Of a stretch of DNA of 32,590 nt, positions 1 to 26,817 are shown one piece after another. The first letter of the stretch is position 1. Each line of letters begins with the position of its first letter. Location of the stretch: positions 1-32,590 of the forward strand of contig CAWDPO010000022.1 of NCBI GenBank assembly GCA_963804165.1, in the 5' to 3' direction. The position numbers and the translations under genes are program-made. The notes below the pieces were generated by a model that saw only the letters and a program-made list of their open reading frames with translations, had not been told where the DNA came from and did no database searches. This DNA is from an uncultured delta proteobacterium (GTDB taxonomy: Bacteria > Desulfobacterota > Binatia > UBA9968).

Positions 1-24
1 CTCCATCAACGCAATCTCGAGCGA

Positions 25-61
25 CATCGCATTGAAGCGTCGTTCAGGTCAATCTTAGGCT
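25..61 (+). repeat. Repeat family A copy 1 (recombination-site-like)
   Basis: CATCGCATTGAAGCGTCGTTCAGGTCAATCTTAGGCT; same core at 513-545, 1526-1561, 4828-4852 and 14848-14880 (minus). Confidence 0.85.
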
Positions 62-217
62 AAAAATCTGGTTCTTCCGCGCAACCCGTGCTGGAAATGC
101 GCACCGATAGCAGCTGCTCGCAGCAACGTGACGCCAGAATTGCAATGTTGCGCTCCTGTTTCAGCGGTGACACGCTTATCGTTGAAGGCACCTAATTGAT
201 TAGGAGGGCATGACAGC

Positions 218-451
218 ATGAACTCCCAAACTACAGGATTGCTAGTGTCGAGCGTGGTGTTCGCTTCGCTGGCCATTGCGCAGCTGGCGCGGCTTGTAAT
301 ACGGCCAGAAGTGCTTGTAGGTGGTTATCCGATGCCATTGTGGCCAAGCGTTTTGGCTGTTATCGTTTTCGGCGGTCTGAGTCTTTGGTTGTGGAGACTT
401 GCTCGCACGCCTACCAGCGAAAACAGTGAGGCGAGGCGCATAAGCCGCTAA
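218..451 (+). CDS. Small two-TM membrane protein, cassette-like
   Basis: 77 aa with two hydrophobic helices; AGGAGG upstream; flanked by repeat A copies 1 and 2. Confidence 0.75.
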   Translation: MNSQTTGLLVSSVVFASLAIAQLARLVIRPEVLVGGYPMPLWPSVLAVIVFGGLSLWLWRLARTPTSENSEARRISR

Positions 452-510
452 CCATTGGATCTAACTCGGCGGGGAACTAAGAAAACCCGCTGTTGGTTTT
501 GGATTAGGCT
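445..510 (+). other. Possible decayed attC site
   Basis: Stop codon embedded in CGCTAAC and a GATTAGGC (GTTAGGC-like) about 55 bp later; internal pairing poor. Confidence 0.2.
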
Positions 511-512
511 AG

Positions 513-577
513 CATCGCGTTGAAGCGTCGTTAAGTTCAATCTCACGTCGATTACAGAATTTGACTGTAGGTTTGAG
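513..577 (+). repeat. Repeat family A copy 2 plus C-type module
   Basis: CATCGCGTTGAAGCGTCGTTAAGTTCAATCTCA followed by GTCGATTACA..TGTAGGTTTGA, resembling TTCGACTACA..TGTCAGGTTTGA at 9714-9741. Confidence 0.8.
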
Positions 578-649
578 GACTATCCACGAACGCGTTATGC
601 GAGTAAAAACGCTTTCAGGCCATTTGCGTCTTTAGGGATTCTGTAATGT

Positions 650-1294
650 TCACTGTTCGCTAACCTCAACGTCGTCGAGAGCCGTAAGAATACCGAGCTC
701 CAAGGCCGTGATTGGAAGCGTCGGACAGCCCGAGGGCCGTTTGGCCTCTGTGCCTTCACAATTTCGCGTCACCCGCTGGTAGTAACCGACGAATCCGCGC
801 TCCCCTTTGCTCAGGAACAGTTGAATCATCTGGTCGTTTAACCGTCCATTGGTCATCTCGCTGTAGAAGGCAGATAGCTCGCCGAAGTGTCCGGTTAAAG
901 GTCTTCCGATCCGGTACGAGTAATTGCCGTGAAACGCAACGTAGCTACGGTCATTGGCCAACCGGCGATCCGCTCCACCAAGGAACGCATTGGCGCAGGC
1001 TGAGTTACAGTACCCCAAGGCAACGGTCGACAGCCCTCGGCGTCGAATCTCGTGAGCAAGGGCTAACCCGATCAAATGTACCCCGCCCGGGCTGTTGGTG
1101 AAGACGACAGTTCGTATGGCTGGGGTTAGGTGCGAAAGGAATTTGTCGTAATCCAACTCGTTAATGAAACCGCTGAGGATGAGCTGAGAGCCGCTGACGC
1201 TCATCTCCATTGCTGAAGTGGGGACGGCTCCCAGCAGAAGCAGCGAGACGAACAGCCAAACGGGTAACTGTTTAATTAACTTCATCGGTTCCAT
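650..1294 (-). CDS. Secreted ClpP/crotonase-like periplasmic protein (COG3904-like)
   Basis: Signal peptide; motifs NSPGG, CNSAC..FLGG..R, FHG; exact start uncertain (1297/1294/1285). Confidence 0.7.
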   Translation of the reverse strand: MEPMKLIKQLPVWLFVSLLLLGAVPTSAMEMSVSGSQLILSGFINELDYDKFLSHLTPAIRTVVFTNSPGGVHLIGLALAHEIRRRGLSTVALGYCNSACANAFLGGADRRLANDRSYVAFHGNYSYRIGRPLTGHFGELSAFYSEMTNGRLNDQMIQLFLSKGERGFVGYYQRVTRNCEGTEAKRPSGCPTLPITALELGILTALDDVEVSEQ

Positions 1295-1393
1295 CAATTT
1301 CAGTTGATTCGACGTTTAGCGCCTCGGCTCGGTTCGTTGCAAGCGGCTCTCGGCTCGCTTTCAACTGCTCGATTGCGTGAAATGACACTATCT

Positions 1394-1489
1394 AACTAAC
1401 AAAGCGGTGGAGGGGAACGCAGCAGTCCTGCCGCTGGATTCCCTTATCGCTTCGGATCCTCAGCGCTCCCTCAACGCCAACGCTAAGGC
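1394..1489 (+). other. Degenerate integron attC-like site
   Basis: AACTAAC-AAAGCGGTGGAGGGGAACGC ... GCGCTCCCTCAACGCCAAC-GCTAAGG: R''/L''/L'/R' layout with paired inner arms; R' has GCT instead of GTT. Confidence 0.45.
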
Positions 1490-1570
1490 TGTAATTGAAC
1501 TGATTTCTCCTACGACTAAATCCTATGAGATTTGACTGAAGCGTCGTTCAGTTCAATCTCAGGCTGAATC
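1490..1570 (+). repeat. Repeat family A copy 3 (most palindromic)
   Basis: TGTAATTGAAC..AAATCCTA then TGAGATTTGACTGAA-GCGTCG-TTCAGTTCAATCTCA (1526-1561; 15-bp inverted arms, 13/15 match, 6-bp spacer). Confidence 0.85.
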
Positions 1571-1698
1571 CCGTCTTGTGGCTCGAAGAATACCTGTCGC
1601 TTTCAGTCGTAAATCTCAGTTTCCCTCTAATGCCGCCCGCGTGATACATAGCAATTGGTGTGGCTTCATGTGACGTTCTTATCCTGGATCAGAAACGT

Positions 1699-1729
1699 TG
1701 TATATTGGACCTTCGTCCAATATACACGC
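1699..1729. repeat. Palindrome family B copy 1
   Basis: TGTATATTGGAC-CTTC-GTCCAATATACA, perfect 12-bp arms. Confidence 0.85.
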
Positions 1730-1817
1730 AGAGCTTACGGCCACACTAACTCGCGCTGAAACTCGCTCGGTCCCTACGGCGCGAACGCGACGATTAACCG
1801 CAGCTGACTTCCATTCT

Positions 1818-3176
1818 TCAGAACACCAACTGAAGCCGTAACCCCAGGATGGTTCCCGTGCCTATGCTCTTTCTACTAAGGCGGGGCAGCAACCCCAAGG
1901 GACCTTGGCCGATGGTGACTTTGTCTTTCTGAGCCCCCCTGATAATCTGGATGTCCGGCGTCAGCAGCGCCCACGGCGTGATCGCAAAATTGTAAAAAGC
2001 CTCGAACCCGTACTCGTCGCGTAAAAGTTTCGTCGTTTGAAGCGGACCCTGAATGGTCGGGTTATGTATATTTATGAAGTAATAACCCAAGCCAAACTTG
2101 TCGTTGGGCCGGCTCTCGAACATGCCTTTGCCGCCGACGCCGAAGCTCGCGAAGAATTTCATAAAGTTCGGATTGCCGTCGGAAACGCCCAAACGCGTGA
2201 ACACGCCGACGCCCCGGTCGACGCCTTTTTTTGGCTCATACAGATACTGGTCGAAGTTGTAGTAAATGTTCCAAGAACCTTTCTTAGCCCTGAGCGCGCT
2301 GTTCTCGATGGTGTCCCTGTCCAACCTCTGATCGATCGAAGTAAACTTTTTGTTGGAAAAAGTCGTGCCGAAAAGCTGATGCCCCGTGAGTCCGAAAAAG
2401 TCCGTTCTCACCCGACCCTCGGCGGCAACGACGATGGCGTTGCCGTTCAAATCCTCAAAGCCCGAGGTAGTGGCATCACCATTGGCCGACATCACAAAGA
2501 AACTGACGACAGCCTCGTTGGGATCTTTGGTGGGTACTACGAGCAGTCCGGTGCCCAAGGTCGAGTAAGGCACCGTGACAGCAGTAAGTGGATTAACGTT
2601 AAATGCCTCGTTCATGAAATTGGTGTCGCCTTTACCGTGGGCAAACTCGTTCATGTCGCCGGAATTTGCGGTGATGGTGGCGAACTTACCTATAGTCAGC
2701 CCGAAGTAGGGAGAAAGATACTGCGTGAAATTCCATGCCGGCACGCCGAAAATATCACCAGGGGACAGTGGATAAAGCTGGTTGTGATTGACCGGCATGA
2801 GCGCGCCGGTTTTCGGGTTGACTGAGGACGCCCAATTACCCTCCATTTCAAAATTAAAAAAACCGCCGGGCCACAAACCGAGCTTGCCGCTGTCCAAATT
2901 GAGGATCAGGTCGCCGCGCCCGCCGTATTCCCATGCGCCGTTTTTGCCGCCGCCGACCACACCTTGGCCGACCTGGGTGATGCTCATATCGAGAGTCACG
3001 CCCTTGGCGGCTAATTCGTTGCGCAACCCACCCCAGTCACCGGTCAGTGTCGAACGCGACCAGAAGTCTCCTGAGTATGGGTCTTTCGCCGAGGAATCCT
3101 GTGCCCCAACGTGCGCGCCCAGCAACATTCCAAACCAAAATATGATCGGTCCAACAATCTTGGACGTTTTCATCAA
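1818..3176 (-). CDS. Carbohydrate-selective porin, OprB family
   Basis: Signal peptide, LTGDWGGLRNELAAKGV motif, YNFDQYLY, E.FYNFAITPW..LTPDIQ, C-terminal Phe. Confidence 0.92.
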   Translation of the reverse strand: MMKTSKIVGPIIFWFGMLLGAHVGAQDSSAKDPYSGDFWSRSTLTGDWGGLRNELAAKGVTLDMSITQVGQGVVGGGKNGAWEYGGRGDLILNLDSGKLGLWPGGFFNFEMEGNWASSVNPKTGALMPVNHNQLYPLSPGDIFGVPAWNFTQYLSPYFGLTIGKFATITANSGDMNEFAHGKGDTNFMNEAFNVNPLTAVTVPYSTLGTGLLVVPTKDPNEAVVSFFVMSANGDATTSGFEDLNGNAIVVAAEGRVRTDFFGLTGHQLFGTTFSNKKFTSIDQRLDRDTIENSALRAKKGSWNIYYNFDQYLYEPKKGVDRGVGVFTRLGVSDGNPNFMKFFASFGVGGKGMFESRPNDKFGLGYYFINIHNPTIQGPLQTTKLLRDEYGFEAFYNFAITPWALLTPDIQIIRGAQKDKVTIGQGPLGLLPRLSRKSIGTGTILGLRLQLVF

Positions 3177-3220
3177 GGCTCACCCTAGGGCGTGGCGGAA
3201 AAAACAGGTGGACCTCATCG

Positions 3221-3290
3221 ACTTTGCCACAACTTTGCCAGAACTATTTGCACGAATGTGTCTGCGCAAAATTTGGTAATAACTCATTGA
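3221..3290 (+). repeat. Integrase arm-type doublet (att relic 1) with IHF-like site
   Basis: ACTTTGCCAC-A-ACTTTGCCAGAACTAT identical to 11021-11047; TAACTCATTGA (3280-3290) is IHF-like on the minus strand. Confidence 0.6.
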
Positions 3291-3316
3291 CGGCCGTACG
3301 CGCATGTCCAGTTTGC

Positions 3317-3680
3317 CTACGCCTTGTTTTTGTTTAATCCGGTCCGCGCCTTTTTGCTGTGGCCGTCCGGCGGTTTCCAGGCTCTTTTTTAATGCCGCGA
3401 AAATATCAACGACTTGGCTGCGCCGCGGCGCCGGCGTGACGGCTTTGATTTCTGGCCTTCGACCTTTTGCTCGACCATGGAGCGCGCTCGCTCGCGGTAT
3501 TCATCGGCATAGCGCTCAGGCTCGAAGTCCGGCGAGAACATTTTCTCGATCAGGCTCATGCCAAGCTCTAGCTGCTCGGCGGGGAGCTTCACGCCTTCGC
3601 CTTTTGCGATCGCATCGAAGTCGCGGATCTCGTCTTTGAAAAACAGGAAGTGAAGAACGAGTGACCGCTCATTAGCGCGT
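3317..3680 (-). pseudogene. ku: Ku (NHEJ) C-terminal fragment
   Basis: LHFLFFKDEIRDF..LGMSLIEKM..FEPERYADEYRER, then after a frameshift VVDIFAALKKSLE; N-terminal part absent. Confidence 0.85.
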
Positions 3681-4270: not shown

Positions 4271-4518
4271 CGATTCGCCGCCCTGACTTCAAATGTGCCG
4301 TTTCTGGCAATCGTCGAAGGTCGCAATTGGCTAAGGATCGGTGAGATTGGGTGGTGCGTGCGATTCTCGCTGTGATTCTCTACGGTCTGTTTCTTCACTT
4401 CCACAGAAATCTCTTTGGCGTCTCGCCGCTGCCGCTGTAGCAGAAACCTAAAGAAGTTGATCACTGGCGGTGAGCGAGTCTGATTCATGCGACCGTCGCC
4501 TGAGCGGGCGACGAAATC

Positions 4519-4740
4519 ACTTTGCCACAGCTTTGCCAGAACTATTTGTTCTAATCTGGTCGAATCGGTAACACCGATACTGACACATAGTCCCGGTACA
4601 GCAAGAGGACTGAAAATCCTCGTGTCGGCAGTTCGATTCTGTCCCTGGCCATACTCTCTCCTCTTTAAAATTCAATCAGTTACCCCGGTCTCGTCGGCGG
4701 GAATGAATTTTCGCCGCCACTTTGCCATTACTTTGCCAGA
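4519..4740 (+). mobile_element. attP-like junction of a tRNA-Phe-targeting integrative element
   Basis: CTTTGCCA doublets (11-bp period) at 4519-4539 and 4719-4739 flank a tRNA 3' half; IHF-like ATTCAATCAGTTA at 4670-4682. Confidence 0.7.
4605..4651 (+). pseudogene. tRNA-Phe(GAA) 3' half (att core), not a complete tRNA
   Basis: Anticodon arm GAGGA-CTGAAAA-TCCTC, T arm GGCAG-TTCGATT-CTGTC, acceptor 3' strand CCTGGCC-A; no 5' GGCCAGG or D arm upstream. Confidence 0.9.
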
Positions 4741-4827
4741 TTCAAGAAGCTCATACACTTGCTGTACATTTCGAGCGACATCTTTCTCTGATAATTGCGC
4801 GGTGCATTGGTTTTGACCACCTCACAA

Positions 4828-4852
4828 TGAAAGCGTCGTTCATCAATCTCAG
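4828..4852 (+). repeat. Repeat family A copy 4 (degenerate)
   Basis: TGAAAGCGTCGTTCATCAATCTCAG. Confidence 0.7.
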
Positions 4853-4871: not shown

Positions 4872-5641
4872 TTGATAGACCGCAGCCTGATATCTGGATA
4901 TACCAAAAGAGGTTGTACGTTTGAAGTCGCCGAAGCATATGAAGTGATGATGGGGCGCTGGAGCCGGCAGTTGGCGCCTTTGTTTGTGAAGTTTGTCGGT
5001 GTGCGGGACGGTGAGAACGTGCTCGATGTGGGCTGCGGCACTGGATCTCTTTCGGCGACGTTGGCGGGAGTGACGAAAACGTCGGAGATCGTCGGCATCG
5101 ATCCTTCCAAGGGTTTTATCGAATACGCCAGAACGCAAATTGCCGATCCTCGGGTAACCTTCGAGGTCGGCGATGCACAAAATCTGCCTTACCCAGACGC
5201 CTCGTTCGACCGATGTTTGGCTCTACTCGCGGTTGATTACATTCCGGATGCTCTGAAGGCAGCGATAGAAATGCGCCGCATTACCAAAATAGCGGGTGTC
5301 GTGGCAACCACGATGTGGGACCGTAGCCGCGCGAATGAGCTTTACGGCTGTTTTTGGGATGCTGCGGAAGCGATCGATCCGACAGCGCAACGGCCCTCTG
5401 CGAGGCGGGGATCGTACGGTTCTGCGGAAGCACTTTCAGATCTTTGGAAGGACGCCGCTCTCACCCACATCGAAGTTACAGACTTGACGATGCGGTGCCA
5501 GTTCTCTTCGTTTGATGAGCTGTGGCAACGTTATCTGACGGGCGAAGGCCCCCCAGGTCCGTAAATGGCGGGTCTTTCGACCCCGACGGACCATTTGCAC
5601 TTAATGCGAAAGCGTGGGCAGTGCGTGGTGTCGTGCCTTAA
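4872..5641 (+). pseudogene. Class I SAM-dependent methyltransferase, C-terminally disrupted
   Basis: YEVMMGRWS, VLDVGCGTG, GDAQNLPYPDASFD; premature TAA at 5562; remnant PDGPFALNAKAWAVRGVVP* in another frame to 5641; in-frame ACG at 4917 after GAGG may be a mutated start. Confidence 0.85.
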
Positions 5642-7062: not shown

Positions 7063-8039
7063 TCACTTGATCACTTTGTCCGCCCGATAGAGTACCGACT
7101 GAGGAATCGTGAGGCCGATCTGTTTCGCAGTTTTGAGATTGATGACCAACTCGAACTTCGTTGTTGCTCGACGGGGAGATTGGCGGGCTTGGCGCCTTTG
7201 AGGATTTTGTCTACGTAAACCGCAGCGCGGCGATATATATCTGTATAGCTCGGCGCATAGGACATGAGGCCACCAACTTCCACATATTCCGTCTGCGTGT
7301 ACATCGCCGGTAGCCGATTGTTTACCGCAAGGTCCACTATCCGTTGCCGGTGAGCATTTGTAAGGAGGCTTTGCAGCACGATGAGAGCGCCGGCTCGTTC
7401 CGTGGTTTGCTGCCCTGAACGCACCCTCGAAGTCGTTGGAACTCCGCACCTCCAGAGATTGAAGCTGAACACTTACTGCAGGGGCCACGACCTGAGTCTC
7501 TTTGAAAGTGACAGCGGAGCCTGGCGTGCTTGGATCCCAAAGTACAGCGACACGGGAGACTTTGGAGATAGTCTCTTTGAGCAGCTCTAACCTCTTCCCG
7601 CTCAACTCCGGAGCAAGGTTGGTGAGCCCCGTGATATTCCCGCCAGGCCGCGCCAGACTCGCGACAAAGCCCTGCGCGACGGGATCTTCAACAGTTGTCA
7701 TGACAACGGGGATCGTTTTGGTTGCATTCTTCAGAGCGCTGATGGCTAAAGCGCCCGACACCAGAATGACGTCAACCCTAAGACGGACCAGCTCCCCTGA
7801 GAGGTCGGGAAGCCGATCACGCTTTCCCCCCCATAACGATAATCGATTGTAATGTTCCGAGCGTCCTCGTAGCCTAGATCGCGAAGACCTTGCTGGAATG
7901 CCTCAATGAATCTAGCGTACGCGGAAGCGGAGGAGCCTCCGAGGAAACCTATCCGGTAGACTTTCTTCGGCTGCTGCGCCTCGGCGAGATTAACATAAAC
8001 GAGAATCAGAACCGGGAGCAGCCAATGCATTCTATTCAT
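7063..8039 (-). pseudogene. ABC transporter substrate-binding protein (ABC_sub_bind), frameshifted
   Basis: AQQPKKVYRIGFL, DPVAQGFVASLARPGGNITG, KRLELLKE, GGLMSY, KFELVINLKTAKQIGLTIP spread over several frames. Confidence 0.9.
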
Positions 8040-8080
8040 AGCCGTGCTCTTTCACCGCAATGGATATGCCACAAAGCCGG

Positions 8081-9441: not shown

Positions 9442-9648
9442 CTACTTCGCGGCTGTTATTTGCATAGACTGATTCTGTCGCAGTTCCAGACCTTCCAGCC
9501 GCGATTCCAGTACAGCAATCTGCGCCTCCCCCTGTTTTATCTCCGCCGTGCGCTTCTCCAGCGCCTGCACCGCGATCATTAGAATCCCCGCCAGGTCACC
9601 AGAGTTAATCGTCGTCTCCGAGCCGATCTGTCCGACGCCGTCGTGGCC
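9442..9648 (-). pseudogene. Peptidase S74 / tail-fibre intramolecular chaperone C-terminal fragment
   Basis: Manual translation GHDGVGQIGSETTINSGDLAGILMIAVQALEKRTAEI.. coiled coil, stop at 9442. Confidence 0.6.
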
Positions 9649-9674
9649 TGGCTGTCAGCCGACCCAGCTGCAGA

Positions 9675-9743
9675 AAGGCGAGCGTATGAAAATCAGTATT
9701 TTGAGCGTGACGATTCGACTACATGGAAGTGTCAGGTTTGATT
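9675..9743 (+). repeat. Repeat family C copy 2
   Basis: As 8081-8161 but lacking 18 bp between TTG microhomologies; AAGGCGAGCGTAT shared with 14913-14925. Confidence 0.85.
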
Positions 9744-9814
9744 CGAGCAAGAATTTCTCGCGAAGATTTCCGAACCTCTGGCAACGTGTTTCGCGCGGAA
9801 TCCTGCCTCTCACG

Positions 9815-10219
9815 GTGACGGAGGCCGCAGCCAAGTCGTTGGGAATCAAACTTCAATCGCTGGAGGTGCGAAGCCTTGACGATTTTGAGAGCGCATTTGC
9901 GCGAGCGAAGAAAGAACGCTCTCAGGCGCTCATTACGACCCCAGGTCCACTTGTCGCTACTCAGCAACGCCAAGTGTTGGACTTCGCAGCAGAGAGTCGG
10001 TTGCCGGCGATGTACTCAAACAGTGAGTTTGTTGAGGCTGGCGGCTTGATGAGCTATGCGCCGAACTATATGGACTTGTTCCGGCGCACCGCTGACCTTG
10101 TAGACAAGATATTGAAAGGTACCAAGACCGCCGATCTTCGACCAACCGAAGAAGTTCGAATTCATCATCAATCTGAAAGCCGCCAAGCAGATCGGGCTCA
10201 CGACAAAGTGATTCGGTGA
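9815..10219 (+). pseudogene. ABC substrate-binding protein C-terminal fragment
   Basis: AAKSLGIKLQSLEVRS..RLPAMY..EAGGLMSY..VDKILKG, small deletions near the end; N-terminal half missing. Confidence 0.88.
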
Positions 10220-10662: not shown

Positions 10663-11020
10663 GTGTGCTTAACCAACCTGATTGATTGAATGATTGTATT
10701 GCTGCGCTAAAACAGCGTCAAGGAAAAGTTGGCTGCGTTACCGTGTTAGATGAAAGAACGTCCGATTCCTTAGCATCAGTTTGGAAATCGAATTTGTCGA
10801 GTGCGTTTAAGAGGCTTTTTATTGAACGGCTCTGTGCAAATCAGCCCTGAGCGGTCTTAAAAACAGACTAAAGGTAATACCATCAGATCTGGCTATCTTT
10901 GCAACGCACGGCGCGCATGGGCATCCATGGTCAGCACATATAATACTTGTGGCGAACCTGAGCGATGCATCTCAGGAGCCTTCTATTCAAAAAGCCTGCA
11001 GCATAAATCTTCGTAGCGTT

Positions 11021-11180
11021 ACTTTGCCACAACTTTGCCAGAACTATATGTCTCTATGTGTTCGAATCGGTAAAATCGACCGGCTGACAGCGCCGGTAAA
11101 CGCTTGGATAAATACCAATAGTGACCGATAGTGACACATAGTCCCCGTACAGCAAGAGGACTGAAAATCCTCGTGTCGGC
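11021..11180 (+). mobile_element. att relic 3: arm doublet plus truncated tRNA-Phe core
   Basis: ACTTTGCCACAACTTTGCCAGAACTA..TGACACATAGTCCCCGTACAGCAAGAGGACTGAAAATCCTCGTGTCGGC, colinear with 4519-4629 apart from a 49-bp indel. Confidence 0.8.
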
Positions 11181-14329: not shown

Positions 14330-14642
14330 GATTGCTCCATTAGTCGTGGGATTTCCGCCAACCGTTACCACAGTTGCGGCGACCATGCGTGGACGGTCGG
14401 ATCAGATCGGGCCACGGCAGGAACTCCTTTCTTTGGGTTAGGTTCGGGCTCCCGTCCTGCGGCCCCGGTAGGATAAGCTCAACCAGTTATTGGATAACCC
14501 ACAACGCTTTCAAACAGTCTAACGAATCGAGGCCGGACCGACTCGCCGAGACTAAGGGAAATCGTATCAAGGATCAGTAAAGCCCCGATGTTCAGCAAAG
14601 AGTGAGTCCGTTAAACTTGGAACCATGAGTATAGAGATAGGT

Positions 14643-14668
14643 CAGAAAAAAAGGTTGTTTAAATTTCC
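14643..14668 (+). promoter_or_regulatory. Motif D copy 1
   Basis: CAGAAAAAAAGGTTGTTTAAATTTCC; reverse complements at 19285-19309 and 20575-20595. Confidence 0.5.
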
Positions 14669-14847
14669 CAGCGAAAGAAGACTGCACGATGTCCAAATGG
14701 AGATTCCCCCAGTTGCCACGATGTCAATCAATTTTTGTTCGCGTTCATCCCAATATACCTGGTCAGTATAGTGCCAATATACCTGCACAGAACAGGTTAA
14801 TTCATTACCGATGAGCCGGACTACGAACCGCCTCTATTTCGTCGGAG

Positions 14848-14925
14848 GATTGAACTGAACGACGCTTCAATTCCATCTCACAGGATTTGTATGGAAGATA
14901 ACGTTCAACTACAAGGCGAGCGTAT
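14848..14925 (-). repeat. Repeat family A copy 5, joined to a C module
   Basis: Minus strand ATACGCTCGCCT-TGTAGTTGAAC..AAATCCTGTGAGATGGAATTGAAGCGTCGTTCAGTTCAATC; colinear with 1490-1558. Confidence 0.85.
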
Positions 14926-15471: not shown

Positions 15472-15810
15472 TAGGGGAAGGACTGGCTTTGTACTGCCGA
15501 TGAGAGTCCCGTAGCCATCGTTATATTTAGTGGTTCGCTCAGGCTTGTCCGATGACTATCCGAACGGCCAGCGTTCTGTGGCGAGCGAGATTATTATTCG
15601 CATCCTGGCTGCAATCGGATTCCCCGGGTCGCGACCTATAGAATGCGTGGTCACTCCGTCCGATAGGCCGCATTCCCATTTTCTTTCTTCTAAGAAGATA
15701 CGGATGCCGATTTCAGGGATTTCCTGATAGGAATTTCTTGCCTCTAGTGTCAAAGCGGTCAGGGAGCGCCTCGGTGATTGAGAATTCAACAGTCCAAGGC
15801 GGGGAAGAGG

Positions 15811-15832
15811 CTATTGGACCAAAGTCCAATAG
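15811..15832. repeat. Palindrome family B copy 2
   Basis: CTATTGGAC-CAAA-GTCCAATAG. Confidence 0.8.
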
Positions 15833-17439: not shown

Positions 17440-17977
17440 GCACGAGAAAACTCGGTCATAGAAGATCAGACCGACGCCCTAAATCAGCAAACCAAACAAT
17501 CCACTACAAAGTCCAATCCTTAAAGAACAAGTAACTAAAGCGCGTTCACTCGGTTTGTATCCAGCCATTCGTTTGGTCGGAACGGGGACAACCAACCCGA
17601 CGAAGACCGAAACTGCTTCTCTATATCCGAGCCCACCCGGAGGTAATCGAGCCAGTTTTTTTCGTTACTTTGCTATTACTTTGGTTGGACATTTTTCCGA
17701 CACGCTAGAGCAGCTGTTTGGGCTTGTTGAGTTACGGCTCGGTTGAGTCTCGGTTGCAGGCTCTGGCGTACTGGGAATGAATTCAGAGCGCAACTTCGGT
17801 GGGGCACGAGACGCCATGGAAGCGGATCAGATGTAACCGCCGACGGGGCGCCAGGGCAGCGAGCCGCTGCATGAATTCCAGCGGCTCCAGGTTCTCCAAA
17901 TTCGTGCTCGCTGCAACTACGTAGGCTGGCATCAGCGTAGCCGGTCCGCGCTACCCTTACCAACAGCTCATTTGGCA

Positions 17978-20574: not shown

Positions 20575-20595
20575 AAATTTAAACAACCTTTTTCT
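20575..20595 (-). promoter_or_regulatory. Motif D copy 3
   Basis: AGAAAAAGGTTGTTTAAATTT about 85 bp upstream of the 20489 start. Confidence 0.55.
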
Positions 20596-21459
20596 TTTAC
20601 CTATCTCTAACGGACTCACTCTTTGCTGACTATCAGGGGTTTACTGATTTCTTTTGCTCTCGAAAGACTAATGGACTTGCGCCGGCGCGACTATCGGGAC
20701 TTCCCTAGTTCTGATTTCTAAATTCCTTATGAAGAGTCATTGCCCAATAACGCTCGGAAGAAGACGCTCGGCTGGCCCCGTTTCATTGAAAGAGCTGCTA
20801 CGGCGGGAGCCGCAGGGAGGTTCGACCTGCGTGGAGGCGCTACCGCCGTATCAGCCAGCGCCGCCATTTCAGGCGGCCGCTATCTCAACAAATCCCAGCG
20901 CCATTTTTCTTCCTGTAACTGAACCGTCTTTAAATTCGCCTTAGCCGACTCGCTTGTGCCTGATCACGGCCTGCTTCGGCCCTGCCTCGCTGCTTCAATT
21001 AGGAGGAGTACGACCAACGCGTTGCGATCTCGACCGAAGCGCAAATCCTTCTTATCTTCCTCGCTAACGGATTGGAGCCACTCTAGTAATTTTGTCGTGT
21101 CGCTTGGCGGGTTTTGTACTAAACGAATGTTTTCAATAGGCGTTGTCTTATCCATAGAAGTCACCTTCACTGCAGACTTACCGTGAAGGATGTCGGACTG
21201 CGCCAGCAGGCCGCTGCCGGGCAACCAGGATGAAAAGGCGATGAGATGAAATCCTAGAAACAAAGCCCAACGCCTACGTCGCCCTAAGAATCTCCCAACT
21301 TTGCATTTGTCCATAGCCGTAGTCTCCGCGAGTTCCCCGTGAATGGAACGTGATAACTCCGACTCCTCCCACTCTCTCCCCCTTTAATCGCGTCATTGGG
21401 ATGATCATCCAACCAAACAACTCTCGCACGGATGTTTCCTTTTCCGCCAAACACGTTGA

Positions 21460-23641: not shown

Positions 23642-23667
23642 GCGTGTATATTGGACCTTAGTCCAAT
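23642..23667. repeat. Palindrome family B copy 3
   Basis: GCGTGTATATTGGAC-CTTA-GTCCAAT; left arm is the exact reverse complement of 1715-1729. Confidence 0.8.
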
Positions 23668-26066: not shown

Positions 26067-26817
26067 CTAATTAACTTTGATTTCGACCCTGCGATTCTTC
26101 GCTCGACCTTCTGCAGTCTTGTTATCAGCGATCGGTTTATTTTCGCCAAAACCTTGTCCAGAAACTCGGCCGCTGTCGACGCCCTTGCCAACAACATAAT
26201 TTTTTACCGAATTCACACGCCGTTCAGACAGCGCCTGGTTGTAGGCTTCACTACCGACATTGTCGGTGTAACCAGCGAGGTTTGCGCTCTTGTCTTTGTT
26301 CTCGGTCATAAACACGACCAGCCGATCGAGAATCTGCGTCGTTGCGGGCTTGACCGTGCTCCGGTCAAAATCGAACAACACGTCATCCAGGATGATCGTC
26401 CGTTCAGCCTTCGGCGCCGGTGGGGGTGGCGGCGGCGGCGGTGGCGGCGGTGGAGCCGGCTTTGGCTTCGGTGCCGGCGGCGGTGGCGGAGGAGGCGGGG
26501 CGGTGGCGGCGGTGGTGGTGGCGGTGGCGGCTCCGGCGTCAGTAAATACGCTAGGCCACCGCAAAGCAAAGCGCCGTCCGAAAAAACCGAGCGGGAATCG
26601 CTTTACCCCCACGGGTATAGCGAGGTGGCCGTTATTGTGGTATGACCGATCCCGACAGCAATCCACCATGTAATGCCGCAGAACAGCCGCGAGCAGTGGC
26701 GGTTACTGTGTTTTGGCGCCTCGTCCAACACCGTTGGCGACCAATTGTCAGTAGTCGCGCAGACCAGCAAGGAATACGCCAAGGACTTATCTAACTCAGT
26801 AATTTTTGTTTGTTCAC
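26067..26817 (-). pseudogene. OmpA-family protein with Pro-rich linker; N-terminus degraded
   Basis: VLFDFDRS, GYTDNVGSEAYNQALSERR, GRAKNRRVEI; GGAGGAG + GTG at 26817 followed by a broken signal region. Confidence 0.85.

Follow-up and report, generated by a model that had tools for sequence, protein, structure and literature searches.

What exchanges the flanks of a short palindromic repeat, and with them the single genes that lie between its copies, in the genome of an uncultured bacterium of the Binatia? The repeat occurs at the beginning of a 32,590-nucleotide stretch of contig CAWDPO010000022.1 (assembly GCA_963804165.1, lineage UBA9968), which we refer to in its full length as the window. 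The initial annotation, made from the letters alone, took the copies for sites of a non-integron gene-cassette system whose recombinase is encoded elsewhere. Here we describe the anatomy of the sites, the arrays they form and the diversity of their cargo, the breakpoints within their cores, and the linkage of the site to a recombinase gene in other DNA. The repeats are probably recombination sites at which a dedicated XerC/D-like tyrosine recombinase, and not an integron integrase, acts on an integron-like system of gene cassettes.

The source assembly (G000) comprises 7.5 Mb in 46 contigs with a G+C content of 55.8%, is 80.9% complete with 5% contamination, and contains the window as contig C22; the same repeat is present in records of Candidatus Binatia and "uncultured delta proteobacterium" metagenome-assembled genomes (MAGs). 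We searched for sites with two keys, the 25-mer TGAAGCGTCGTTCAGTTCAATCTCA at three mismatches or fewer and a 17-nt core at one mismatch or fewer, and used 100 shuffles of the window and, genome-wide, the reversed pattern as controls. Within the window the 25-mer is found at 33-57 (+), 521-545 (+), 1537-1561 (+) and 14845-14869 (-), and none of the 100 shuffles gave a match. Four of the five copies initially listed were thereby recovered. The fifth, near 4822-4851, lies beyond three mismatches and is decayed, its GCGTCG (4833-4838) being followed by TTCA-TCAAT with two bases gone. No Rfam family matches within the window. The genome scan that had been proposed as a check yielded 39 copies of the 25-mer in G000, with none for the reversed control, and the 17-nt core gave 51 sites. 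Three of the window sites enter these genome counts twice, because C21:9912-13410 is a second copy of window positions 1-3500 at 99.2% identity, reflecting either strain heterogeneity or a true duplication. The array on C21 has seven sites, and the window therefore shows just the last three. In the wider family the core is present in 50 of 90 genomes and 16 of 23 genera, as compared with 0-1 matches for the reversed control, and the site-richest genomes are G000 (51), G056 (42), G018 (28) and G066 (11). Our tallies over 41 and 90 relatives include the unpublished genomes G005, G059, G062 and G076; no claim rests solely on these four.

Comparison of 48 unique composite sites, drawn from G000 and fetched loci of relatives, shows that the unit is not the single palindrome first described but a composite of two inverted simple sites. 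The full element of approximately 65 nt consists of two 28-bp sites, each built as an 11-bp arm, a 6-bp spacer and a second 11-bp arm. Its parts follow one another as R'' (ATTGAA(C/T)TGAA), TTCTCC, L'' (xTCAxxxCAAT), a linker of 6-10 nt, L' (ATyxxAyTGAA), GCGTCG and R' (TTCAGTTCAAT). Variation is almost absent from the outer arms ATTGAACTGAA and TTCAGTTCAAT and from the two spacers, TTCTCC and GCGTCG; the inner arms repeat the motif of the outer arms in degenerate form. The tyrosine-recombinase layout suggested in the earlier description stands, with arms inverted about a spacer of 6 bp, here in an 11-6-11 geometry. The 15-bp arms initially described are those of copy 3, where they are complementary at 13 of 15 positions, and do not hold as a general rule, since only about 11 bp are shared. 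Right-hand-only copies also exist, several of them near-perfect 11-bp palindromes (11/11 in L025, for example), and window copy 2 belongs to this group. In the left arm, the TGA beside the spacer is the best-conserved part across a set of 165 right-hand sites from distinct contexts; positions 0-16 of this set are conserved by construction, because they served as the search key.

This anatomy also identifies the flanks that appeared to be shared among copies. What copies 1 and 2 have in common on the left is the site's inner left arm (ATCGCRTTGAA), and the left flank of about 50 nt found both in copy 3 and in the minus-strand copy corresponds to a composite site's left half. The right flank common to copies 1 and 3 is a conserved 5' leader of about 105 nt belonging to a family of paralogous genes for ABC_sub_bind (PF04392) binding proteins. 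This leader lies to the right of many cores and places the start codon approximately 130 nt past the core, and the C-terminus of the protein (..ADKVIK) ends just short of the next site. We had also considered the right flank as the C-terminus of a reverse-strand protein, a candidate that was rejected on finding the leader and because the frames are broken in most copies.

The sites are arranged in arrays. Thirty-three pairs of neighbouring sites share a contig in G000, 31 of them within 10 kb of each other, and all 31 are co-oriented; the median spacing of sites is 1,716 bp, as compared with 147 kb expected under an even spread. Five of the sites lie within 1.5 kb of a contig end. Many inter-site intervals hold one gene each, and copies 1-3 of the window are, as originally stated, direct repeats with one open reading frame (ORF) per pair. 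Of 24 intervals no longer than 1.6 kb, 18 have their longest ORF in the orientation of the sites (p = 0.02), or about 17 of 22 without two near-duplicate pairs. The cargo is diverse by Pfam assignment. ABC_sub_bind proteins are frequent and sometimes truncated, and they are accompanied by methyltransferases, TENA/THI-4, cupin and SnoaL-like proteins, as well as GNAT, TIR-methyltransferase, metallo-beta-lactamase-fold, lipocalin-like, MgtC, response regulator and GH65 proteins; many cargo proteins have no Pfam family at all. BLAST comparison of the G018 arrays with G000 found in common only paralogous binding-protein and TENA genes, and was uninformative for cassette boundaries. A separate sequence of about 70 nt with repeated ATAGGCYGCSGA lies to the right of five G000 sites (C9:7345, C5:17059, C15:25793, C21:5539 and C24:175884), followed by unrelated genes, and may be a second conserved cassette leader.

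If these arrays are reshuffled by site-specific recombination, synteny should break at one place in the site. The initial annotation read an exchange of flanks at the core, and the comparisons confirm it: window positions 40-1558, which contain both of the window's cassettes, recur at C23:256832-255309 at 99.3% identity with different sequence on both flanks, and five further independent pairs break within the core. A 0.96-kb cassette is likewise common to C12 and C20, with different neighbours on either side. Counting from the first base of GCGTCG as position 0, pairs with a common upstream side first differ at +12 and +18 (two of two independent pairs), and pairs with a common downstream side have their nearest difference at -2, -6, -7 and +5 (four of four). 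These upstream-side and downstream-side differences together place the junctions, and therefore the exchange, between +6 and +11. The difference at +5 comes from C23, where a hybrid site has R''-TTCTCC directly abutting TTCAGGTCAAT. From these alignments, exchange probably occurs at or just inside the boundary between spacer and R'.

A mobile element inserted in the sites provides an independent pointer to the spacer/arm boundary as the likely place of strand cutting and joining. This element of approximately 2.5 kb encodes a tyrosine recombinase of 299 aa and an IS91-type Y2 transposase. Eight copies have their left end in view, and in seven of them it falls precisely where a 6-nt spacer meets TTCAGTTCAAT or a slightly different form of that arm. 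The seven derive from five genomes (three copies in G000 and one each in G060, G056, G066 and G014), with five following GCGTCG and two following the complement of TTCTCC. The eighth copy, which is 72% identical and sits on a short contig, is not at the spacer/arm boundary, and five left ends of a 57%-identical subfamily all lie elsewhere. In two soil metagenome contigs this left end is attached at positions 1548 and 44 of the window. The element ends form an 11-6-11-like inverted repeat of their own with a spacer unrelated to that of the site, and integration therefore needed no spacer identity. The element's recombinase is present in 25 of 90 genomes, including genomes without sites, and was not found in site-rich G018 at the threshold applied; the arrays thus do not require it, and we rejected it as the general cassette recombinase. 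Our literature search found no title or abstract on an element of this kind combining IS91 with a tyrosine recombinase.

A better candidate for the cassette recombinase adjoins the site in relatives. In six gene copies from four genomes and three genera, a gene encoding a protein of approximately 307 aa ends 6-7 nt before GCGTCG-TTCAGTTCAAT on the same strand. These comprise two copies in G055, two in G054, one in G050 and one in G018, the last being frameshifted, located inside an array, and ending 6 nt before the core. The protein scores 205 bits against XerC and 201 bits against XerD, both under the cut-offs, and 60-66 bits against the integron integrase model, through its C-terminus alone; the usual catalytic motifs are visible by eye in the alignment. 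We extended the comparison to metagenome contigs, where 80 recombinase loci were recovered, 15 of them not assessable (C-terminus missing or fewer than 45 nt after it). The site stands at the 3' end of the gene in 47 of the 54 assessable loci at 60% identity or more, most of the other seven having a decayed copy, and in 0 of 11 loci at 36-52% identity. After these 47 sites come 39 distinct flanks of 25 nt. Cassettes ending in composite sites come after the recombinase gene in L094, L095, L109 and L110, and sites of the same orientation also occur upstream of it; the gene thus lies within arrays, like an enzyme-carrying cassette. Co-occurrence of a recombinase with the site, which the initial annotation wished to see checked, is therefore found in relatives and metagenomes and not in G000. 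The prediction that the enzyme is encoded outside the window holds, and the gene was also not found anywhere in the 81%-complete assembly.

Each cassette ends in a composite site of two inverted simple sites with dif geometry, and we propose a mechanism in which the arms are bound by recombinase subunits. Strands would be exchanged where GCGTCG meets TTCAGTTCAAT or just inside this boundary, such that two co-oriented sites could release a circle of one gene and one site. The circle could then enter at any other site, one point of entry being the simple site into which the recombinase gene extends at its 3' end. In the window we see the last three sites and two cassettes of one array, on which the recombinase would act in trans. 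Catalysis by this enzyme, the exact position of cleavage, the formation of circles, the use of a double-stranded or a folded substrate, and the movement of cargo by the same route are what we infer from sequence comparison.

Several observations weigh against this reading. We saw no recombination event, and no cassette circle or empty site appeared among the contigs of four soil runs. Of the joined cores that the initial annotation proposed to look for, a single contig joint in one run links position 35 to 1539 with a 29-nt side, and is ambiguous because both sides are repeats. The soil-run contigs break at sites, and summed depth peaks 5- to 50-fold there. Contigs of one run cover cassette A completely and those of another partially, and the low cover of positions 101-500 in three soil runs does not show that this sequence is missing. 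For cassette B, contigs of four soil or rhizosphere runs from four studies give cover at 90% identity or more. The recombinase was detected in only 5 of 90 family genomes (E <= 1e-35), and none of the three site-richest genomes has an intact copy: it was not found in G000 or G056, and that of G018 is frameshifted. Given the sites upstream of it, the recombinase gene may be no more than one of the cassettes, or else a selfish element with the sites as its target. In 6 of 24 short cassettes the ORF lies on the opposite strand, and homologous recombination between the conserved cores is an unlikely, though conceivable, cause of the shuffling.

A folded, single-stranded substrate also lacks support. 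Site 3 folds as single-stranded DNA (z = -5.2); copy 2, which has no hairpin (z = -0.3), and the minus-strand copy do not fold well. The inner arms, which would pair in such a structure, match at 6.55 of 13 positions within sites and 6.46 between sites, with 1436 of 5000 permutations as high, and this lack of compensatory changes, a further point against our reading, leaves the folded substrate unsupported. The inverted arms are explained equally well by four protein-binding half-sites and by a hairpin. The type of inner segment showed no association with an upstream or downstream binding-protein gene under a loose classifier (6/18 vs 7/25; p = 0.75 and p = 0.32).

The alternative that survives best, although we consider it unlikely, is that the sites are landing pads for selfish elements, namely the Xer-like unit and the element with integrase and Y2 transposase, and that shuffling results from homologous recombination between cores. 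Both recombinase-bearing units do lie at or in sites, and the rarity of the Xer-like recombinase (5/90 genomes) fits this view, as does the lack of direct evidence for cassette circles. It does not readily account for a 17-nt core that is nearly invariant over 16 genera, which requires a selective agent, nor for breakpoints that fall in one narrow stretch in all six informative pairs. Moreover, the co-orientation of 31 of 31 pairs, together with genes that end just before a site, fits designed cassettes.

Less probable still is that these are unusual attC sites of ordinary integrons, with the arrays being clusters of attC sites that have no integron integrase (CALINs) that are shuffled in trans by the integron integrases of the lineage. 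For this and the other published systems, our comparison draws on excerpts of the cited sources. In these, attC sites are defined by 7-bp R''/R' boxes (RYYYAAC/GTTRRRY) located 5-6 nt from paired L''/L' (PMC3458562, PMC8876359). The outer arms of our sites do contain AAC...GTT, and G|TT at +10|+11 falls inside the breakpoint bracket; however, AAC and GTT are 14 nt apart, as opposed to 5-6, and the canonical L-box positions are not complementary (L'' would be TCTCCAT and L' GAAGCGT, as read by eye). CALINs without a nearby integrase are described as common (PMC4889954). With the TIGR02249 model and its cut-off of 265 bits, we detected an integron integrase in 9 of 41 relatives, and in the site-rich G018 and G056, in both of which it lies on contigs other than those with site arrays; that of G066 is frameshifted. 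None reaches the cut-off in G000, where the best score is 105 bits and model positions 182-245, the IntI-specific region, are missing, nor in G067 (99% complete, 6 sites) or G104 (97% complete, 7 sites). Five integrase loci of relatives have none of these sites (0/5), and the G014 integrase adjoins canonical GCCTAAC...GTTAGGC attC sites. In 47 of 54 loci, the recombinase that is physically linked to the site is a different one. The earlier designation of the system as non-integron is thus upheld by the missing integrase, by the attC geometry that the sites do not fit, and by the Xer-like gene that abuts the site in relatives and metagenomes.

G000 does contain remains of an integron of the usual kind. 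At C34:24302-24391 a 30-residue C-terminal fragment of an integron integrase lies beside three canonical GCCTAAC...GTTAGGC attC-like sites (C34:25835, 27219 and 27610), and the two together are a decayed ordinary integron in the same genome. As a separate observation, tandem 9-nt repeats containing GTTCAA (CGTTCAAnn, 4-6 units) occur in G000 at C10:~20850-20900, C34:~131200-131290 and C45:~59750-59830, as well as in L015 (5433-5487, 5925-5965 and 6246-6300) and L017 (~8030-8080). They lie 0.4-2 kb from an integron integrase gene in two relatives and beside a Y1_Tnp gene on C34.

A third possibility, that the sites are selfish repeats related to REP doublets forming hairpins (REPINs) or miniature inverted-repeat transposable elements (MITEs), is very improbable. 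Here inverted doublets, moved by a Y1 (RAYT-type) or other transposase, would gather between accessory genes. The composite does have terminal inverted repeats of 11-13 bp and an internal doublet, and G000 has 18 Y1_Tnp (PF01797) matches, yet 15 of the 18 genes are far from any site. In addition, the sites are clustered and co-oriented (31/31 pairs) rather than dispersed, right-hand-only sites exist, left and right flanks are unlinked between copies, and there is no empty-site pattern. The Y1_Tnp set of G000 is in its own right unusually large, with many of its members in frames of about 320 aa. Finally, the idea of a transcription-factor operator controlling the binding-protein gene family, to which the palindromic arms and the core about 130 nt upstream of many ABC_sub_bind start codons, in a conserved leader, would be suited, is the least probable reading, since the fixed distance is due to the common leader, the core also precedes unrelated genes, follows the recombinase stop codon and stands at array ends with no gene behind it, and synteny breaks at the core.

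The arrays share with integrons co-oriented, mostly single-gene cassettes, a site at each cassette end whose two homologous regions are inverted, exchange close to its 3' end, and the occurrence of arrays without a nearby recombinase (comparison with PMC3458562, PMC8876359, PMC4889954 and PMC8138268). They differ from those described in these sources in a recombinase without the IntI-specific insertion and in 11-bp arms with invariant 6-bp spacers in place of 7-bp boxes. Here, unlike in integrons, the recombinase gene reads towards the array, with its stop codon inside the site. Insertion elements specialise on the site in integrons, as they do in the Binatia arrays. On both features that define an integron, the IntI insertion and attC geometry, the system falls outside that class.

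The closest published analogue is the rAID-1 arrays of Bacteroidales (bioRxiv 10.1101/471110). There, genes reading in one direction come behind a XerD-like recombinase, a motif stands immediately past its stop codon, and integron-like repeats lie between genes. The 5' Xer-like recombinase, the co-directional genes, the motif at the stop codon and the intergenic repeats are all found in our relatives and metagenome contigs; in G000, where the recombinase was not found, this layout is absent. In contrast to rAID-1 as it is presented there, the present arrays occur in soil Binatia-type MAGs, carry binding proteins, methyltransferases and other cargo rather than immunity genes, and in many cases have no recombinase. 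The likeness described here is one of gene and site layout, and the site anatomy and a crossover bracket are worked out for the present arrays.

The individual sites resemble dif. Chromosomal dif sites are described as 28 bp in 11-6-11 form, with one arm better conserved and inner palindromic parts conserved (PMC6449649), and pdif modules of Acinetobacter plasmids as having oppositely oriented simple sites at their flanks, with insertion sequences that target the sites (PMC6449649, PMC10132070). The sites here share the 28-bp 11-6-11 form, one better-kept arm, conserved inner palindromic parts, inverse simple sites and targeting by insertion elements; unlike pdif in these accounts, the simple sites stand in tight inverted pairs and are linked to a dedicated recombinase paralogue, not to the host XerCD. 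Among host Xer genes, G000 has one for XerD (357 bits) and a XerC-like one that is split. A search with a short consensus found a single-copy host dif, ACGTCTGATAA-GAGATA-TTATGTAAACT, which also occurs once in each of five relatives (5/5). The lineage consensus, ACGTCTGATAA-GAKATA-TTATGTMAACT, agrees with R' in 6 of 11 positions and with the consensus of the left arm in 3 of 11 (by eye). We rejected the cassette sites as dif sites of the host XerC/XerD, given that true dif differs in its arms and centre and that a separate paralogue is linked to the sites. The hairpin of CTX phage attP(+), mentioned in PMC3458562, is a further precedent for paired sites. There too, two close, inverted dif-like sites could pair into a duplex site with an unpaired centre. 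Unlike attP(+), the sites here lie in chromosomal cassette arrays and not in a phage, and strand folding is not supported. We found no paper tying integrons or such arrays to Binatia, and no title or abstract on a Xer-like, integron-like cassette system in soil bacteria.

Positions of the sites, cassettes and inserted elements are compiled in the table. Cassettes A and B travel jointly to C23, where homology stops at position 1558. Cassette B is present on C21, C22 and C23, and the first 25 nt or so of cassette A are a remnant of the binding-protein gene leader. No ABC_sub_bind gene follows the leader remnant at 1558-1662, which therefore marks the array end; the next gene is an OprB-family porin (1818-3176, -). 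Directly downstream of the decayed site is a methyltransferase gene (4872-5564), a cargo type frequent in arrays.

Table. Sites, cassettes and related features of the window, with copies of the inserted element
Feature	Position	Strand	Details
Site 1, composite truncated by the contig start	1..53	+	Complete version with outer left arm ATTGAACTGAA-TTCTCC at sister contig C21:9898-9965
Site 1, parts	1-4; 5-15; 16-25; 26-36; 37-42; 43-53	+	Last 4 nt of left spacer; L''; linker; L' ATCGCATTGAA; GCGTCG; R' TTCAGGTCAAT
Cassette A	54..513	+	ORF 218-451 (+), 77 aa, hydrophobic sequence (by eye), no Pfam family
Site 2, right-hand simple site without left half	514..541	+	L' ATCGCGTTGAA 514-524; GCGTCG 525-530; R' TTAAGTTCAAT 531-541
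Cassette B	542..1493	-	ORF 650-1297 (-), 215 aa, no Pfam family, orientation opposite to the sites
Site 3, full composite, last of the array	1494..1557	+	R'' ATTGAACTGAT 1494-1504; TTCTCC 1505-1510; L'' 1511-1521; linker 1522-1529
Site 3, right half	1530-1540; 1541-1546; 1547-1557	+	L' ATTTGACTGAA; GCGTCG; R' TTCAGTTCAAT
Leader remnant	1558..1662	+	About 105 nt, otherwise ahead of ABC_sub_bind (PF04392) cassette genes
Decayed right-hand site	4822..4851	+	GCGTCG 4833-4838; outer arm short by 2 nt
Solitary diverged composite site	14849..14915	-	17-nt core 14849-14865; left-half spacer TTATCT instead of TTCTCC
Integrase and Y2-transposase element, two identical copies	G000 C23:251688-254223, 259579-262114 (L065 1689-4224, 9580-12115)		In left halves of two different sites
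Further copies of the element	L079-L083		

Other repeats were noted in the window. An inverted pair of about 95 nt (14573-14666 and 20575-20648), consisting of two blocks with 90-91% complementarity, encloses a 5.9-kb segment that adjoins the solitary site and may mark a mobile or invertible segment. Truncated ABC_sub_bind fragments at 7063-7761 (-) and 9548-10219 (+) form another inverted pair, with 53-nt arms at 83%, around approximately 3 kb. A palindrome of 26-28 nt that appears perfect, TGTATATTGGACC..GTCCAATATACA, occurs in intergenic DNA at 1699-1729 and 23642-23667, with weaker copies at 15808-15830 and 26707-26729, and looks like an operator. Direct repeats beginning with ACTTTGCCACAACTTTGCCAGA are located at 3217-3279, 4515-4629, 4715-4740, 11017-11180 and 17663-17683; two copies reach about 160 nt with 83-96% identity (4519-4629 and 11021-11180), and the family has no Rfam match.

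In textbooks, the capture and reshuffling of single genes by bacteria is the work of integrons, whose definition rests on a single integrase family and a single kind of site. Our findings raise the possibility, which we put forward tentatively and with somewhat less than even confidence, of a second, IntI-independent class of gene capture that occurs widely among uncultured soil bacteria. Its enzyme would be a Xer-derived recombinase, encoded by a gene that ends within a simple site, and would move single-gene cassettes with paired, inverted sites of dif geometry, exchanging one strand pair at the spacer/arm boundary, and the system would have its own parasite in the element with integrase and IS91-type transposase. 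Exchange of a single strand pair at this boundary would explain how elements whose spacers are unrelated to those of the site integrate there. With its short, almost unvarying and now dissected sequence, the site could be used to fish cassettes from soil metagenomes and in bench tests of how a simple tyrosine recombinase acts on paired inverted sites. If our reading is correct, an abundant, uncultured soil lineage does the integron's job with a plain Xer-like recombinase and a site of different construction. Such a system would add to the rAID-1 arrays of Bacteroidales and would suggest that cassette capture arose more than once from Xer recombinases.

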